From NCBI GenBank assembly GCA_031291995.1, contig JARLHZ010000025.1, positions 25,174 through 89,173 of the forward strand: 64,000 nucleotides of DNA, read 5' to 3'. The DNA comes from Candidatus Doudnabacteria bacterium. Its GTDB lineage: Bacteria; Patescibacteriota; Doudnabacteria; UBA920. Shown one piece after another: positions 34,641-58,617 of this stretch (position 1 is its first letter; each line of letters opens with the position of its first letter). The translations under genes and the position numbers were made by a program. Under the pieces are notes generated by a model that did not search any database, was not told the DNA's origin, and saw only the letters and a list, made by a program, of their open reading frames with translations.

Positions 34641-34710
34641 ATAATTGATAATTTATAGTTGATAACAACCGTTCGCGTCCACAGAGTTATAAGTTATCAA
34701 TTATAAATTA
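34641..34710. repeat. Family-B palindromic element, empty hairpin (arms AATTTATAGTTGATAAC / GTTATCAATTATAAATT, about 27-nt loop)
   Basis: Read directly from the sequence. It shares the arm AATTTATAATTGATAAC with the copies at 38690, 39080 and 49613. Confidence 0.7.
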
Positions 34711-34861
34711 TGAGTTATTTCCACGATTTATTATTATAATCCATTTTACTTCCAGCGTCAATCGGGTTAAAATAGAATTATTGCAGACATTAATTGATTT
34801 TTGGATATTGGGGTATTTGCAAAACGGCGTTCAATCGATCAATATCCCAATCCAGCCGCCA

Positions 34862-37696: not shown

Positions 37697-37783
37697 TTTA
37701 CGAAGTACGAACGAGAACGAACTTACGAAGAGTAAGTACCCGTTCGTTCGTAAGTTCGTAAAATTTCGTACTTAGTAAAATTA
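37694..37783. repeat. Family-A palindromic element (terminal arms TTACGAAGTACGAA / TTCGTACTT(A)GTAA), copy 1, immediately after the ruvB stop codon
   Basis: gtagtttacgaagtacgaacgagaacgaacttacgaag...cgttcgttcgtaagttcgtaaaatttcgtacttagtaaaatt. A second copy lies at 58542-58617. Confidence 0.75.
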
Positions 37784-37995: not shown

Positions 37996-38139
37996 AGGGT
38001 TATGGTTGTAGGTTATAGAATGTGGTAGGGAAAATGGTTGTTGGGCTTAGGGCTATGAGCGCTAACGGCCTACTTTCCAAGGCCTATGACCAATCTACTT
38101 TCCATAACTTACAACTAATAACTAACTCCCCACCCAACT

Positions 38140-38688
38140 ATGTCCAAAAAACTTTTCCCCAGCCAGCTGGATGACGAACAAATTTTTCTTGTCGTACGCG
38201 AACACTGGGTCCACCTGACGCTAAAACTCATTGTCTGGGGATTCTTTGCTTTTTTGTTGGTGCTGTTTGAACAGGCGGGCCAAGCCAATATCCCCCAGCT
38301 GTTTTTGGGCACTTGGGGCGAAGTAACCCTGTTGTTTATTCAAATCTACACCTTAATGCTGATTATGGCGCTATTTTTGATTGTGGTTATATATTATTTA
38401 AACATTCAAATTATTACCAACCTCCGGGTTGTGGATGTCAGCCAGGAAGGACTGTTTTCCCACACGATTTCGGAACTTCATATAGATAAAATTGAAGACG
38501 CCACGAGCAAAACCAGCGGGCTGCTCGGCACAATTTTTAATTACGGCGATGTGTTCGTGCAAACCGCCGGCACGGTGGAACGGTTCGATTTTCACAACGT
38601 CCCCAACCCGGCGGCTATTGAAAAAATGGTATTGGATCTATACGAAAAAAATTCCAATTTCGCTAAAGACGCCGGGGAGAATAACTGA
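38140..38688 (+). CDS. Membrane protein with a bacterial PH (bPH_2/DUF304, YdbS/YdbT-like) domain
   Basis: Two N-terminal TM helices followed by a roughly 90-aa domain (VVDVSQEGLFSHTISELHIDKIEDATSKTSGLLGTIFNYGDVFVQTAG). Confidence 0.5.
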   Translation: MSKKLFPSQLDDEQIFLVVREHWVHLTLKLIVWGFFAFLLVLFEQAGQANIPQLFLGTWGEVTLLFIQIYTLMLIMALFLIVVIYYLNIQIITNLRVVDVSQEGLFSHTISELHIDKIEDATSKTSGLLGTIFNYGDVFVQTAGTVERFDFHNVPNPAAIEKMVLDLYEKNSNFAKDAGENN

Positions 38689-38723
38689 TAATTTATAATT
38701 GATAACTAATAACTAACCCCCTT

Positions 38724-39087
38724 ATGGCGTTTAGATTCCAATCTTGGCAAGTTTATAAGGATGCACGGACGTTCAGGAAAGAAATTAATGCCATACTCAA
38801 AACATATCCGCCAGCGGAACGATATGTACTTATAGACCAAATAAAGCGGGCGATGTTGTCGGTAATGCTACAAATTGCCGAAGGATCCGAACGAAAGACC
38901 GAAAAAGATAAAAATCTTTTCATAAACCGATCGTTAACCTCCCTTTTTCGAGATAGTCGCCTGTTTAGATTGTGCGGTTGATGACAAATACATCACCGAA
39001 GATCAATATAAAGACCTGACGCAAAAAGCCGAAAATATAGCCAAACAACTTAGAGGTTTTGAGAAGTATATCCGCAAAAGTTATTGA
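38724..39087 (+). pseudogene. Four-helix-bundle protein (23S rRNA intervening-sequence protein family, TIGR02436-like), frameshifted at the T5 run 38944-38948
   Basis: N-terminal MAFRFQSWQVYKDARTFRKEI...LQIAEGSERKTEKDKNLFINRSLTSL parallels the intact paralogue at 56650-57027. Removing one T restores ...EIVACLDCAVDDKYITEDQYKDLTQKAENIAKQLRGFEKYIRKSY*. It could be a homopolymer sequencing error. Confidence 0.6.
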
Positions 39088-39113
39088 TTATAAATTATTA
39101 ATTATAAGTTATC

Positions 39114-39551: not shown

Positions 39552-39556
39552 AGGTT

Positions 39557-39576
39557 CCCCGCCGCAAGCAGCGGGG
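39557..39576 (+). terminator. GC hairpin after the nucleotidyltransferase gene
   Basis: ccccgccgcaagcagcgggg. A second hairpin plus T-run lies at 39754-39790 (ccggtatggataagtgcgaatccataccg-acttttttg). Confidence 0.45.
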
Positions 39577-40087
39577 TATTACTGCAAGGAACAGCTGCAT
39601 CTTCGCGGCAAGCCGCTAGGTATTGAACCTTTCTTTCCGCCAAAGGCGGATCCGCCTCCGGCGGAAGTTCCCTGCCTGGCGGCAGGCAGGCCTCGGCTCG
39701 CTTGTCCATTGAAAGACAAAGGACAGACTCGCCTACGTCGCGAATAAATAGCGCCGGTATGGATAAGTGCGAATCCATACCGACTTTTTTGATGGCGTTC
39801 ATTTTAGGATCCAGCGAACGCCAATGACGGGGCGGAACGTTTGGCGGTCAACGAGCGGAGCAAACCACAGCTTAAATGCAGTACGCGGGATAGAAAGCTC
39901 CACTTTCGGTCCGTTGCACTTAAAGCGCTCGGAAAAGCTGCCTAGCCCTAAAGTTTTGCTCATCCGGTAATTAGTTTCCACCTTGTACCAAAAGCCGCTG
40001 CCACCGTCCTCAAACACCGCGAGGCCAGAAAGTTTGGCCTTGCCCACCCAAATAAGGACGAATTAAGCTATTGACATACAATATAAT

Positions 40088-48893: not shown

Positions 48894-49613
48894 ATGACGT
48901 TCATTTCCGTTTACAACGCAATAATCTATCACCCCCTTCTGAACCTGTTGGTGTTTTTTTACAATATCGTTCCAGGCCACGACATTGGCGTGGTTATTAT
49001 TTTAATTACCATTTTTATCCGGCTGTTATTGGCTCCGAGTTTTGGCAAATCCATCCGGAGCCAAAAAGCCATGAATGATTTACAGCCCAAATTGAATGCC
49101 GTGCGGGAAAAATATAAGGACGATAAAGAAGGCCAGGCCAAAGCCATGATGGAACTGTATAAAGAAAATAAAATAAACCCTTTTTCTTCCTGCTTGCCCC
49201 TGTTAATCCAGTTGCCGATTTTGATCGGCCTGTACCAGGCATTCCGCGTGGCGTTAAATCCCGCCATTGGCATGGCCGAGCGGTTGAGCGGGCTTTACCC
49301 GTTTGTCTATCGTCCTGAATCCATTAGTCCTTTTTTCTTTAAGGTTATCAATTTATCCCAACCGAGCGCGGTGTTGGCAATTATGGCCGGCTTGGCCCAG
49401 TTTTGGCAGTCTAAAATCATGATGCCCCAGGGACCGGGACAGGATACCACCATGAAAGCCATGAGCATGCAAACTACTTATGTATTGCCTGTAATCAGCA
49501 TGTTTATCGCCTGGCGTCTGCCTGCCGGATTGCCGCTTTATTGGGTGGTTACCACTTTATTCGCCGTGGGCCAACAGTATTATGTTATGAGAAAACCGAA
49601 AGTTAATCAATAA
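48894..49613 (+). CDS. yidC: YidC/Oxa1-family membrane protein insertase (short form)
   Basis: 239 aa with five TM helices. The PLLIQLPILIGLYQA and GLPLYWVV motifs are typical of the YidC core. Confidence 0.85.
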   Translation: MTFISVYNAIIYHPLLNLLVFFYNIVPGHDIGVVIILITIFIRLLLAPSFGKSIRSQKAMNDLQPKLNAVREKYKDDKEGQAKAMMELYKENKINPFSSCLPLLIQLPILIGLYQAFRVALNPAIGMAERLSGLYPFVYRPESISPFFFKVINLSQPSAVLAIMAGLAQFWQSKIMMPQGPGQDTTMKAMSMQTTYVLPVISMFIAWRLPAGLPLYWVVTTLFAVGQQYYVMRKPKVNQ

Positions 49614-49666
49614 TTTATAATTGATAACTTATAACACCGCTAGGTTACTTGTTATCAATTATAAAG
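49613..49666. repeat. Family-B palindromic element, empty hairpin (arms AATTTATAATTGATAAC / GTTATCAATTATAAAG, 21-nt loop containing GCTAGG), immediately after the yidC stop
   Basis: Read directly. The arm is identical to the one at 38690-38706. Confidence 0.75.
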
Positions 49667-49682
49667 TATAAATTCCAAATCC

Positions 49683-56093: not shown

Positions 56094-56615
56094 TTATGCC
56101 TTTAACCGGAGGTCTTTTTGATATTTATGGCCGGCGCACATTGCAATGGCTACCGCGTCCGCCGCGTCGTCCGGCTTGGGTGGGTTTTTGAGTTTAAAAG
56201 TTTTTTGAACAATGTACTGAACCTGTTTTTTTTCCGCTTTGCCGTAACCGCAAATAAAGCTCTTGACCTGAAGCGGGGTAAATTCCAGAATCGGAACTTT
56301 ATGCTGTTGGCAAACCAGCAGGACGGCTCCCCTGGCCTGGGAAACGGTCATAACCGTTTTTTGGTTGGTGGTAAAAAACAATTTTTCAATCCCCACGGCA
56401 TCCGGCCTGAATTTTTTTAGGAGTTGGATTATGTCATCGGCCAAAATGTTTAAGCGTTCCGCGTCTGTCAGATTTTTGTCCGTCGTAATTACGCCAAAAT
56501 CCACCAGCTCGGGCTGGTTTTTTCCGCCGGAGGCGGACCCGCCTCCGGCGGGAGTCATTTCTATTACTCCGAATCCGGTAGTTGCCGTACCCGGGTCGAT
56601 GCCTAGTATAATCAT
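56094..56615 (-). CDS. ruvC: Crossover junction endodeoxyribonuclease RuvC
   Basis: MIILGIDPGTATTGFGVIE plus the RNase H-like catalytic residues (DPG..., ...E..., ...HAD-type motif AADAVAIAMC). Confidence 0.9.
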   Translation of the reverse strand: MIILGIDPGTATTGFGVIEMTPAGGGSASGGKNQPELVDFGVITTDKNLTDAERLNILADDIIQLLKKFRPDAVGIEKLFFTTNQKTVMTVSQARGAVLLVCQQHKVPILEFTPLQVKSFICGYGKAEKKQVQYIVQKTFKLKNPPKPDDAADAVAIAMCAGHKYQKDLRLKA

Positions 56616-56634
56616 AAGTTAACAATAACTATTA

Positions 56635-57052
56635 CTATAACGATAACTGCTAGGATTCGGGGTGTTCAATAGCATTCTTGAGATGGTTTTCTAAACCCCG
56701 GAGTTGCTTAGCTAAATTTTCGATTTGGTTGTAGAAGTATTTATATTTATCTTCATCAATATAAACATCATCAAGCGCGCAGTCAAAGCAGGCCATAACT
56801 TCATCGAGCGAGGTTAGGGCCCGATTTATAAAAACAATCTTGTTATTTTCTGTCCTGCGGTTAGAACCTTCGGCAATCGCTAACACAACTGAGAGAGCCG
56901 CCCTATCGGTTTGACTTATAAGAATATATTTTTCGTCCGATGGCCAGGTTTTGGTTGTTTGTTTAACCTCTTTTCTAAAAGTTCTCGCGTCTTTATAAAC
57001 CTGCCAACCATGGAATTTAAAAGACATAGGGAAGTTATGGTTATCGTTATAG
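56635..57052. repeat. Perfect 13-bp inverted repeats (CTATAACGATAAC / GTTATCGTTATAG) bracketing the four-helix-bundle gene, an IVS-like cassette
   Basis: Arms at 56635-56647 and 57040-57052, each 2-12 nt from the ORF ends. Confidence 0.75.
56650..57027 (-). CDS. Four-helix-bundle protein (23S rRNA intervening-sequence protein family)
   Basis: 125 aa (MSFKFHGWQVYKDARTFRKEV...LAIAEGSNRRTENNKIVFINRALTSLDEVMACFDCALDDVYIDEDKY...). Paralogue of 38724-39087. Confidence 0.7.
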   Translation of the reverse strand: MSFKFHGWQVYKDARTFRKEVKQTTKTWPSDEKYILISQTDRAALSVVLAIAEGSNRRTENNKIVFINRALTSLDEVMACFDCALDDVYIDEDKYKYFYNQIENLAKQLRGLENHLKNAIEHPES

Positions 57053-57056
57053 TCAG

Positions 57057-57773
57057 CTAAAGGTTTGCAGAAGTGTGTACCGCTATAACGTCCTCGTCAT
57101 TTTCCAGGGCCGCGAATAGAGTGTCAACTTTAGGCTTCTGGTCTTCGGTTAAGTCCGTTCCCTGCGACGATTCCTTAATAATTTCCGCCTGGGCGATTTT
57201 GGCTCCGGCTTTTTCCAGAGCAGTTTTAATTTTGTGCAAATCCTGGGGCAGTGTGTAAACCTCCAAACCTTCTTCGGACTCCCGGACATCGTCCGCTCCG
57301 GCGTCTATGGCGGCCATTTCGATATCCGAAATATTTTTATCGCGCTCGACTAAAATTTGTCCCTTGGTGCTAAATTGCCACGCTACGCTCCCCTGGGCTC
57401 CTATACTGCCGCCGTGTTCGGAAAAAATTTTGCGGACGTTGTTAAAAGTGCGGTTGCTGTTGTCCGTGGCCGCTTCCACCAAAAATGCCGTGCCGAACGG
57501 CCCGTAGCCTTCGTAGGCGACTTCTTTGACCGCGGCCGCCCCCGCTCCCAGCGCGTTTTTTATGGCCCGTTCCACGTTTTCGTTGGGCATGCCCTGGGCT
57601 TTGGCGCTGTCGATTATCGTTTTTAATTTAAAATTGGCCGACGGGTCGCCGCTGCTTCCTTCTTTTACGGCTATGGAGATTTTTTTGGAGTACTTGGAAA
57701 ACAGCAGTCCCTTTTTTTGGTCAAGGACGCCTTTGGTTCGTTTAATTTGCGACCACTTGGAATGTCCGGACAT
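57057..57773 (-). CDS. yebC: YebC/PmpR-family transcriptional regulator
   Basis: MSGHSKWSQIKRTKG... is the near-universal YebC N-terminus. Confidence 0.9.
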   Translation of the reverse strand: MSGHSKWSQIKRTKGVLDQKKGLLFSKYSKKISIAVKEGSSGDPSANFKLKTIIDSAKAQGMPNENVERAIKNALGAGAAAVKEVAYEGYGPFGTAFLVEAATDNSNRTFNNVRKIFSEHGGSIGAQGSVAWQFSTKGQILVERDKNISDIEMAAIDAGADDVRESEEGLEVYTLPQDLHKIKTALEKAGAKIAQAEIIKESSQGTDLTEDQKPKVDTLFAALENDEDVIAVHTSANL

Positions 57774-58541: not shown

Positions 58542-58617
58542 GTAGTTTACGAAGTACGAATTTTTACGAACATACGAAGGGTTCGTAAGTTCGTAACCGT
58601 TCGTACTTCGTAAAATT
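58542..58617. repeat. Family-A palindromic element, copy 2 (perfect 14-bp arms TTACGAAGTACGAA / TTCGTACTTCGTAA)
   Basis: gtagtttacgaagtacgaatttttacgaacatacgaagggttcgtaagttcgtaaccgttcgtacttcgtaaaattt. It lies 4 nt upstream of the rsmI start on the opposite strand. Confidence 0.75.

Follow-up and report, generated by a model that had tools for sequence, protein, structure and literature searches.

A four-helix-bundle gene between inverted hexamer arrays in the yebC-ruvC spacer of a Candidatus Doudnabacteria genome

What is a small gene for a four-helix-bundle (4HB) protein, a relative of the proteins encoded in intervening sequences (IVSs) of 23S rRNA, doing between two mutually complementary arms in a housekeeping operon? 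The locus that raises this question lies between yebC and ruvC in a 64-kb stretch of DNA from Candidatus Doudnabacteria, of the candidate phyla radiation (CPR; Patescibacteria); this stretch, the part of the genome that was covered here, is called the window below. From the anatomy of the locus, its relatives and their genomic neighbourhoods, we consider the chances evenly balanced that the feature is an IVS-like cassette, in which a promoterless open reading frame (ORF) would be co-transcribed with the operon inside a hairpin whose arms, paired in the RNA of the operon, would insulate the insertion and offer a processing site of the RNase III type.

The inverted repeat and the gene that it encloses

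The 4HB gene (56650-57027, minus strand), the loop cargo of the cassette, starts with ATG and encodes 125 amino acids (aa). In the sense of the gene, 12 nt separate the 5' arm of the repeat (57040-57053, minus strand; GTTATCGTTATAGT on the plus strand) from the start codon downstream of it, and 3 nt separate it from the yebC stop codon upstream; the 3' arm (56634-56647, minus strand; ACTATAACGATAAC on the plus strand) follows the 4HB stop codon, which ends at 56650, after 2 nt and precedes the ruvC start by 18 nt. Both direct reading and a repeat finder showed ACTATAACGATAAC and GTTATCGTTATAGT to be 100% complementary over 14 bp. The perfect inverted repeat at 2 and 12 nt from the ORF ends, first noticed in an earlier examination of the letters and ORF list of this DNA (the sequence-only reading), is therefore confirmed, except that it is one base longer than the 13 bp given there. 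The 14-bp arms are the best-paired stretches of two hexamer arrays. The array that contains the 5' arm (57034-57053, minus strand) has three NATAAC units, ACTATAAC GATAAC CATAAC in the gene sense and GTTATG GTTATC GTTATA GT on the plus strand, and the one that contains the 3' arm (56618-56647, minus strand) has five GTTATN units, GTTATC GTTATA GTAATA GTTATT GTTAAC in the gene sense and GTTAAC AATAAC TATTAC TATAAC GATAAC on the plus strand. Judging from these units, the five-unit 3' array would allow alternative pairing registers.

The element measures ~420 nt, with its arms 392 nt apart. When the two 60-nt flanks were shuffled 20,000 times, no 14-nt perfect complement arose (the maximum was 13, reached three times), and of 9,072 placements of this geometry slid over the whole window only that of the 4HB locus, the single place in the window where the 14-bp arms occur, gave one. 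The outer flanks, ending in CTATT before one arm and beginning with CAGCT after the other, contain no direct repeat, and no target-site duplication was found here or in the orthologues. An Rfam search of the window gave no match, rRNA included, and a scan for promoters and terminators in and around the cassette returned matches at about background level.

The encoded protein belongs to PF05635, 23S_rRNA_IVP (E 2e-25; 89.5 bits against a cut-off of 33.8), and to the four helix bundle protein family TIGR02436 (77.8 bits; cut-off 24). Its AlphaFold2 monomer model (mean predicted local distance difference test score 95.3) consists of four long helices at residues 9-25, 30-55, 60-86 and 92-121. A profile of 28 homologues matched pentameric XCC0516 (2GSC, E 1e-18) and BT_0352 (2RLD), stand-alone members of the 'S23 ribosomal protein' family whose entries contain five chains each. 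The agreement extends from sequence to fold: Foldseek gave template modelling (TM) scores of 0.88/0.94 to XCC0516, with 2RLD superposing too, and of 0.75/0.86 to Avd (4DWL), the accessory protein of diversity-generating retroelements (DGRs), and its matches also included the Avd-containing DGR ribonucleoprotein structures 8UB7 and 8UBE. Among orthologous cassettes at yebC-ruvC, the ratio of nonsynonymous to synonymous divergence (dN/dS) is 0.05-0.17, and the proportion of synonymous differences (pS) is 0.45-0.79, mostly saturated; the ATAAC/GTTAT arrays are retained in the window and in L161, L164 and L165 all the same. The persistence of the arrays over saturated synonymous divergence, together with the low dN/dS, indicates that protein and arms are both kept by selection. 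We conclude that the 4HB protein is conserved, is maintained by selection and has an Avd/XCC0516-like fold. It is most likely a nucleic-acid-binding oligomer, by analogy with Avd, from whose place in a ribonucleoprotein such binding may reasonably be guessed. The 'IVS protein' family, known since 1993 and represented by two crystal structures since 2006-2007, has to our knowledge no function assigned to it outside DGR Avd. Assignment to a defence system was rejected, PADLOC having returned only a spurious coiled-coil-like match to JetC (E 3e-4).

In its geometry, the element agrees with the earlier proposal of an IVS-like stem. The 23S rRNA IVS of Coxiella is 428 nt long and has a 28-bp terminal stem that is cut by RNase III and an S23p ORF in the loop (PMC4990558). 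Like the IVSs of Leptospira and Coxiella burnetii, the window element has closing arms and a PF05635 ORF in the loop, is of nearly the same length (~420 versus 428 nt), would be embedded in a longer host transcript and has a sporadic phylogenetic distribution (PMC4990558). It differs from them in its host site, which is the yebC-ruvC mRNA spacer instead of helix 25 or 45 of 23S rRNA, in its arms, which are tandem arrays of 6-7-nt units, and in its perfect stem of 14 instead of 28 bp; excision by RNase III would here be an extrapolation from the rRNA case. The window cassette would thus work in the manner of a 23S rRNA IVS without belonging to these elements, as it lies outside the location that defines them.

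The upstream host gene is yebC (57057-57773, minus strand; TACO1/YebC family, PF01709 and PF20772), the downstream one ruvC (56094-56615, minus strand; PF02075). An rsmI-like methylase gene lies further upstream of yebC, and a tyrS-like gene is also among the neighbours. A scan for YebC yielded 13 Doudnabacteria-type loci and 67 outgroup loci. In 56 of the 67 outgroup loci, ruvC is the next gene after yebC, on the same strand; the gaps have a median of 29 nt, and a single one exceeds 150 nt. The junction measures 0-4 nt in two close relatives (L003, L013), and both observations support the claim that the cassette was inserted into a tight junction. According to the sequence-only reading, presence of the gene at this junction in all relatives would have marked it as ancestral and fixed; 12 of the 13 Doudnabacteria-type relatives first sampled have no 4HB gene there. 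The junction is occupied by a solo hairpin of 75-130 nt in L001, L002, L006 and L009-L012, each with its own tandem unit (TCTAATG in L011), by a GC-rich structured insert in L007, and by a 4HB cassette in L008, the protein of which is 60% identical to that of the window. ORFs of 122-129 aa with an ASCH domain lie in the gap in L004 (4722-5112) and L005 (4722-5091); they have no flanking inverted repeats and were ruled out as cassettes.

In further relatives (L161-L167), the proteins most similar to that of the window (73-84% identity) are all encoded at the yebC-ruvC junction, and NATAAC/GTTATN arrays are present in these closest orthologous cassettes. Since the nearest homologues all share this site, the window copy must be old and vertically inherited there rather than recently mobile. 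A neighbour-joining tree of YebC and RuvC is star-like and unresolved, with the 4HB-bearing taxa scattered among the others, and would fit either one old insertion with several losses or several gains. In either case the gene at yebC-ruvC is neither universal nor recent: the cassette is ancient there in one subclade and seems to have been gained, lost or replaced over longer times.

Bracketing and arms across the family

Inverted arms are a property of the family at large. For a metagenomic sample of 80 diverse relatives (31-57% identity), retrieved with two peptide patterns of the window gene's subfamily, a bracket score was taken from the best complementary segment, without gaps, that the 135 nt around the start form with the 135 nt around the stop, with 316 other genes from the same loci as controls. 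At a threshold score of at least 12, inverted arms enclose 68 of 76 diverse 4HB genes (89%), compared with 6% of the controls (Mann-Whitney U test, p = 1.4e-31), a result that bears out the cassette idea of the sequence-only reading. Several of the positive controls are cassettes themselves, either of a second 4HB subfamily (L004, L005, L006, L008) or of the GxxExxY/PD-(D/E)XK type (L145). Plain 23S rRNA IVSs were ruled out as the identity of the metagenomic loci, none of the 20 loci tested being in 23S rRNA. Among the same 20, cassettes were found immediately upstream of a 16S rRNA gene (L151 2494-2857; L117 610-970) and between a tRNA gene and the gene for signal recognition particle (SRP) RNA (L138 2497-2842; L154 2482-2845), all of which are spacers of processed stable-RNA transcripts. 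Viral contigs contributed one relative only (L174, with TAAC-type inverted arms), so that the subfamily is not noticeably phage-borne. Insertion of PF05635 genes in cas loci has been described elsewhere (PMC3936711).

The arms of these cassettes are typically 20-60 nt of tandem short units, such as GTTCATG/GTTCATA, AGTCCGGA, GAAGAAC, ATGAACG and TAACTGA-like units. Pooled over 60 cassette arms, self-identity amounts to 0.58 at lag 7 and 0.56 at lag 14, and to ~0.25 at other lags; the arms of the window gene have a period of 6, not 7. The 11-mers of a cassette's own arms recur elsewhere in 13 of 32 loci, at 28 sites versus ~8 expected, and in L090, L092 and L098 solo hairpins built of the cassette's own unit lie between ordinary genes. 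Long arrays also occur directly upstream of the 4HB start, namely 134 nt of GAAACAGAAGAACAGAGAAACTAA-type units in L092 (2343-2476) and about eight copies of a 17-nt unit in L090 (3413-3558), in both cases with a short downstream arm.

Arm sequence appears to follow protein type. Pairs of 4HB genes with at least 70% identity share arm 6-mers (mean shared fraction 0.54-0.60) whether or not their flanks are homologous, and 22 such pairs are from different contexts, as defined by tblastx on flanks of which some are short; for pairs of less than 45% identity the shared fraction is ~0.05. Where one genome has two distinct cassettes (L090, L098, L008, L165), their arms differ. This sharing of arms according to protein identity, combined with the differing arms within one genome, argues that arms go with the type of ORF, although genomes also carry arm-unit families of genome-wide distribution. 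Many homologues end in KSY or NSY, with the last two residues encoded by AGT TAT inside a GTTAT-type 3' arm, so that in this subfamily the ORF extends into the arm.

A second, more canonical TIGR02436 4HB subfamily (~125 aa), likewise with inverted arms, adjoins an rsmI-like gene in relatives (L004 2328-2709, L005 1955-2336, L006 3592-3961, L008 3574-3958, L165 1336-1710); the corresponding rsmI-side site in the window is a gap of 45 nt only. The rsmI-yebC-ruvC operon is, by these occurrences, a hot spot for such cassettes. The same architecture was observed for a second family of small ORFs: in L145, a minus-strand ORF (L145|-|4492|4879, reverse-complement offsets) for a GxxExxY/PDDEXK_3 protein of 128 aa (TIGR04256) is bracketed by a 39-nt inverted repeat of CCGAAT units.

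With 4HB genes bracketed in the mRNA operon spacers, rRNA leaders and tRNA/SRP-RNA spacers of this sample, the rRNA IVS looks like a particular form of a more general class of ORF-in-hairpin cassettes, a class that has been little described. In annotation, the bracket can serve as a simple signature for flagging cassettes and their ORF-less derivatives in CPR genomes. The defined arms, the solo hairpins with the same arms and the orthologous occupied and empty sites are handles for experiments.

RNA stem, DNA element or protein target

In the mechanism that we propose, a cassette sitting in the normally 20-30-nt yebC-ruvC spacer, and co-oriented with the operon, would be transcribed along with it. 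The (NATAAC)n and (GTTATN)n arms would pair in the polycistronic RNA with the 4HB gene in the loop, and their make-up as repeat arrays with several pairing registers should help arms 392 nt apart to meet. By pairing, they would return the yebC stop and the ruvC start region to about the ancestral spacing: with the stem formed, the distance is 3 + 18 nt plus the stem base, compared with an ancestral spacer of 22-29 nt. Translational coupling could then operate across the closed stem, and the stem might serve as a double-stranded substrate of the RNase III type from which the 4HB mRNA is released, by analogy with the 23S rRNA IVS.

Orientation is in favour of this mechanism. Over 76 loci, the 4HB gene has the orientation of both its neighbours in 41 and is opposed to both in 1, with median gaps of 51 and 42 nt between the gene and its neighbours; a ratio of 41:1 is to be expected of a promoterless cargo that relies on the transcription of its host genes, but not of a DNA element that inserts at random. 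In the minimum free energy fold of the sense transcript, the arms form the closing helix, of 14 bp or, across a 2-nt bulge, ~20 bp.

Several results weigh against the proposed mechanism. The fold of the whole 461 nt is barely better than that of shuffled sequences (z = -1.9), and if the bulged extension did not form, RNase III would have only a short perfect stem of 14 bp to act on. A signature of wobble pairing in RNA, seen when the scoring favoured G.U pairs, disappeared with symmetric scoring and was dropped: G.U and A.C mismatches in cassette stems then number 113 and 99 (p = 0.37). Among 33 strong solo hairpins between co-directional genes, the sense strand folds better in 11 and the antisense strand in 20, which is not significant. 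No RNase III signature motif was found among the ORFs of the 64-kb window, a result that is uninformative for the rest of the genome. The covariation of arms and ORFs across contexts could partly reflect host phylogeny, because of the genome-wide unit families mentioned above. With neither a wobble bias nor a sense-strand bias, the arms appear to be kept alike by a process acting on DNA, for example by template switching or gene conversion between arms. Such homogenisation is compatible with a function of the stem in RNA.

It is also what a palindromic mobile element would show, with the arms as terminal inverted repeats or hairpin-forming ends in the style of miniature inverted-repeat transposable elements (MITEs), repetitive extragenic palindromic (REP) sequences and bacterial interspersed mosaic elements (BIMEs), or Correia elements. 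A recombinase or transposase encoded elsewhere would recognise the arms, or template switching at replication would keep them identical; the 4HB gene would be a passenger, the RNA stem incidental and the solo hairpins non-autonomous derivatives. Beyond the missing G.U-over-A.C and sense-strand biases, which this explanation predicts, the terminal inverted repeats themselves, the identical arms with and without an ORF in one genome, the dispersal of arm units over other intergenic sites, the 22 pairs of closely related 4HB genes that have the same arm units in non-homologous contexts and the genomes with two differently armed cassettes all agree with it. We nevertheless consider it unlikely, given that no target-site duplication marks the arm ends, that no recombinase, transposase, integrase or RAYT-like (REP-associated tyrosine transposase) gene lies next to any cassette examined, that the 41:1 orientation of the cargo is not random and points to selection through transcription, and that copies have persisted at orthologous positions over divergences that saturate synonymous sites. 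Two further explanations are very improbable. That the gene is an ordinary small one and its inverted repeat a product of chance or otherwise trivial, for example two unrelated regulatory sites or the halves of a terminator, would suit a perfect repeat that is short (14 bp) and AT-rich, but is refuted by the shuffles, by the conservation of the arms in orthologues and by the family-wide bracketing. A DGR remnant or accessory gene, in which the 4HB protein would be Avd and the flanks degenerate template and variable repeats (TR/VR), is suggested by the similarity to the Avd structure, by the abundance of DGRs in CPR genomes and by a weak match to the hidden Markov model NF033474 (DivGenRetAVD). 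That match, at 23.9 bits, is far below the cut-off of 80, the sequence identity to Avd is 8-10%, and the neighbours are yebC, ruvC and the rsmI-like and tyrS-like genes, without a reverse transcriptase, TR or VR nearby; the repeats are inverted 14-30-nt arrays of short units instead of 100-nt direct TR/VR pairs, and the subfamily is almost absent from viral contigs (1 locus). The low score and the lack of a reverse transcriptase effectively refute the DGR explanation for the window locus.

Finally, the arrays might be binding sites of the oligomeric, probably pentameric, 4HB protein, which would regulate its own gene at its own site and, as a post-transcriptional or transcriptional regulator, many other junctions, with the solo arrays as further targets. 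Arms that co-vary with protein type and not only with genome, arm lengths that cluster near 4-5 units, and arrays of the same unit at other junctions, often directly upstream of start codons, would be explained in this way, as would a fold shared with Avd, part of the DGR ribonucleoprotein (8UB7, 8UBE), and the partnerless arrays of heptamers that Beggiatoaceae, Cyanobacteria and Bacteroidetes have close to start codons (PMC4679880; bioRxiv 10.1101/2022.06.06.494920). Yet orthologues of 60-84% identity are flanked by arrays of period 6 (window, L161, L164, L165) or period 7 (L008), which argues against a fixed geometry of subunit to unit; the unit GTTCAT occurs in either polarity relative to the ORF across subfamilies (L108 versus L094); and hairpin families of the window, TACGAAN and others, have no matching 4HB gene within the 64 kb. 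On balance, such a regulator seems rather improbable to us. With similar reserve we raise the broader and speculative idea, doubtful as it is, that PF05635 proteins and arrays of ~7-nt units form one functional system in which the oligomeric protein recognises cognate arrays in RNA or DNA and is invariably encoded between two inverted arrays of this sort, with the 23S rRNA IVS as one landing site. If so, the ORF-less hairpins and start-codon-proximal heptamer arrays of CPR genomes would be further targets of the 4HB protein, and the TAACTGA/heptamer arrays of Cyanobacteria, Beggiatoaceae and Bacteroidetes possibly targets as well.

Returning to the co-transcribed cassette, its arrangement can be compared with other systems. 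REP/BIME, enterobacterial repetitive intergenic consensus (ERIC), Neisseria Correia elements and other MITEs are intergenic palindromic repeats that are co-transcribed with operons, and Correia elements are RNase III substrates. They are multi-copy inverted repeats in co-directional spacers, a description that the solo hairpins of the window fit, but have no ORF and do not consist of tandem 6-7-nt units, and the window cassette has no target-site duplication. Integron cassettes are small promoterless ORFs with a hairpin-forming imperfect inverted repeat, co-oriented with the upstream host transcription and expressed from it, as is proposed here; they carry a single 3' attC and need IntI and attI, whereas the window ORF lies between two arms that would pair with each other, and cassettes of its kind are single and scattered in housekeeping operons. 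TAACTGA-type direct repeats next to start codons have been reported, unexplained, from Beggiatoaceae, Cyanobacteria and Bacteroidetes (PMC4679880), and heptamer repeats near start codons in Nostoc have no identified partner (bioRxiv 10.1101/2022.06.06.494920). Like the arrays described here, these are tandem 7-nt units immediately upstream of starts, in spacers without a clear Shine-Dalgarno sequence, and a second cassette in the window, described below, has a TAACTGA-type arm. The published arrays are direct, with one inverted set reported (PMC4679880), and are not linked to PF05635, whereas those of the window type are inverted pairs around a gene or a short loop. There may be a connection between the cassettes and these unexplained heptamer arrays of several phyla. 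Our literature search, of incomplete coverage and thus yielding absence of evidence only, found no paper that ties PF05635/4HB genes to flanking repeat arrays.

The sister cassette and further hairpins in the window

The second cassette (38681-39105, plus strand) contains a 4HB gene (38724-39087) whose reading frame shifts by +1 at five consecutive T (38944-38948). The frameshift could reflect a pseudogene, a sequencing error or slippage; the orthologue P0066 is intact in L082 and L172, in the same bPH_2/CTP_transf context. The arms of the sister cassette, a 22-27-nt imperfect inverted repeat, are heptamer arrays with the consensus ATAACTGATAATTTATAATTGATAACTTATAAC, one of them reading TAACTGA TAATTTA TAATTGA TAACTTA, and the last codons of the gene, AGT TAT TGA (39079-39087), are inside the 3' arm. 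The variant arm subfamily suspected for the yebC-ruvC cassette is borne out by this comparison, in which its NATAAC/GTTATN hexamers represent a variant of the TAAYTRA heptamers in the arms of the sister cassette.

The arm sequence of the sister cassette is present at three loci of the window and also encloses 4HB genes in L008 and L082. Besides the cassette itself, it forms two solo hairpins without an ORF, at 34641-34718 (z = -5.7) and at 49605-49674 (z = -4.8), the latter filling the intercistronic gap between co-directional genes. Two other hairpins (37697-37779 and 58546-58614) have 33-nt arms of TACGAAN heptamers and fill gaps almost exactly from stop to start, one between ruvB and the next gene and the other between a 103-aa ORF and the rsmI-like gene. 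The fold of a long intergenic hairpin at 38000-38130, which has GGTTATGGTTGTAGGTTATAG-type arms, is better by 12 kcal/mol on the sense strand; another such hairpin, at 1716-1824, is AT-rich and has 52-nt arms.

A different kind of repeat is located within ruvC (56524-56551), where a GC-rich perfect palindrome, CCGCCGGAGGCGG-AC-CCGCCTCCGGCGG, encodes a Gly/Ser-rich stretch (...PAGGGSASGG...). It may represent a second, GC-rich repeat family that is able to sit in-frame in genes. Its 13-mer recurs with an imperfect partner at 39637-39664, in a highly structured non-coding gap of 247 nt (39552-39798).

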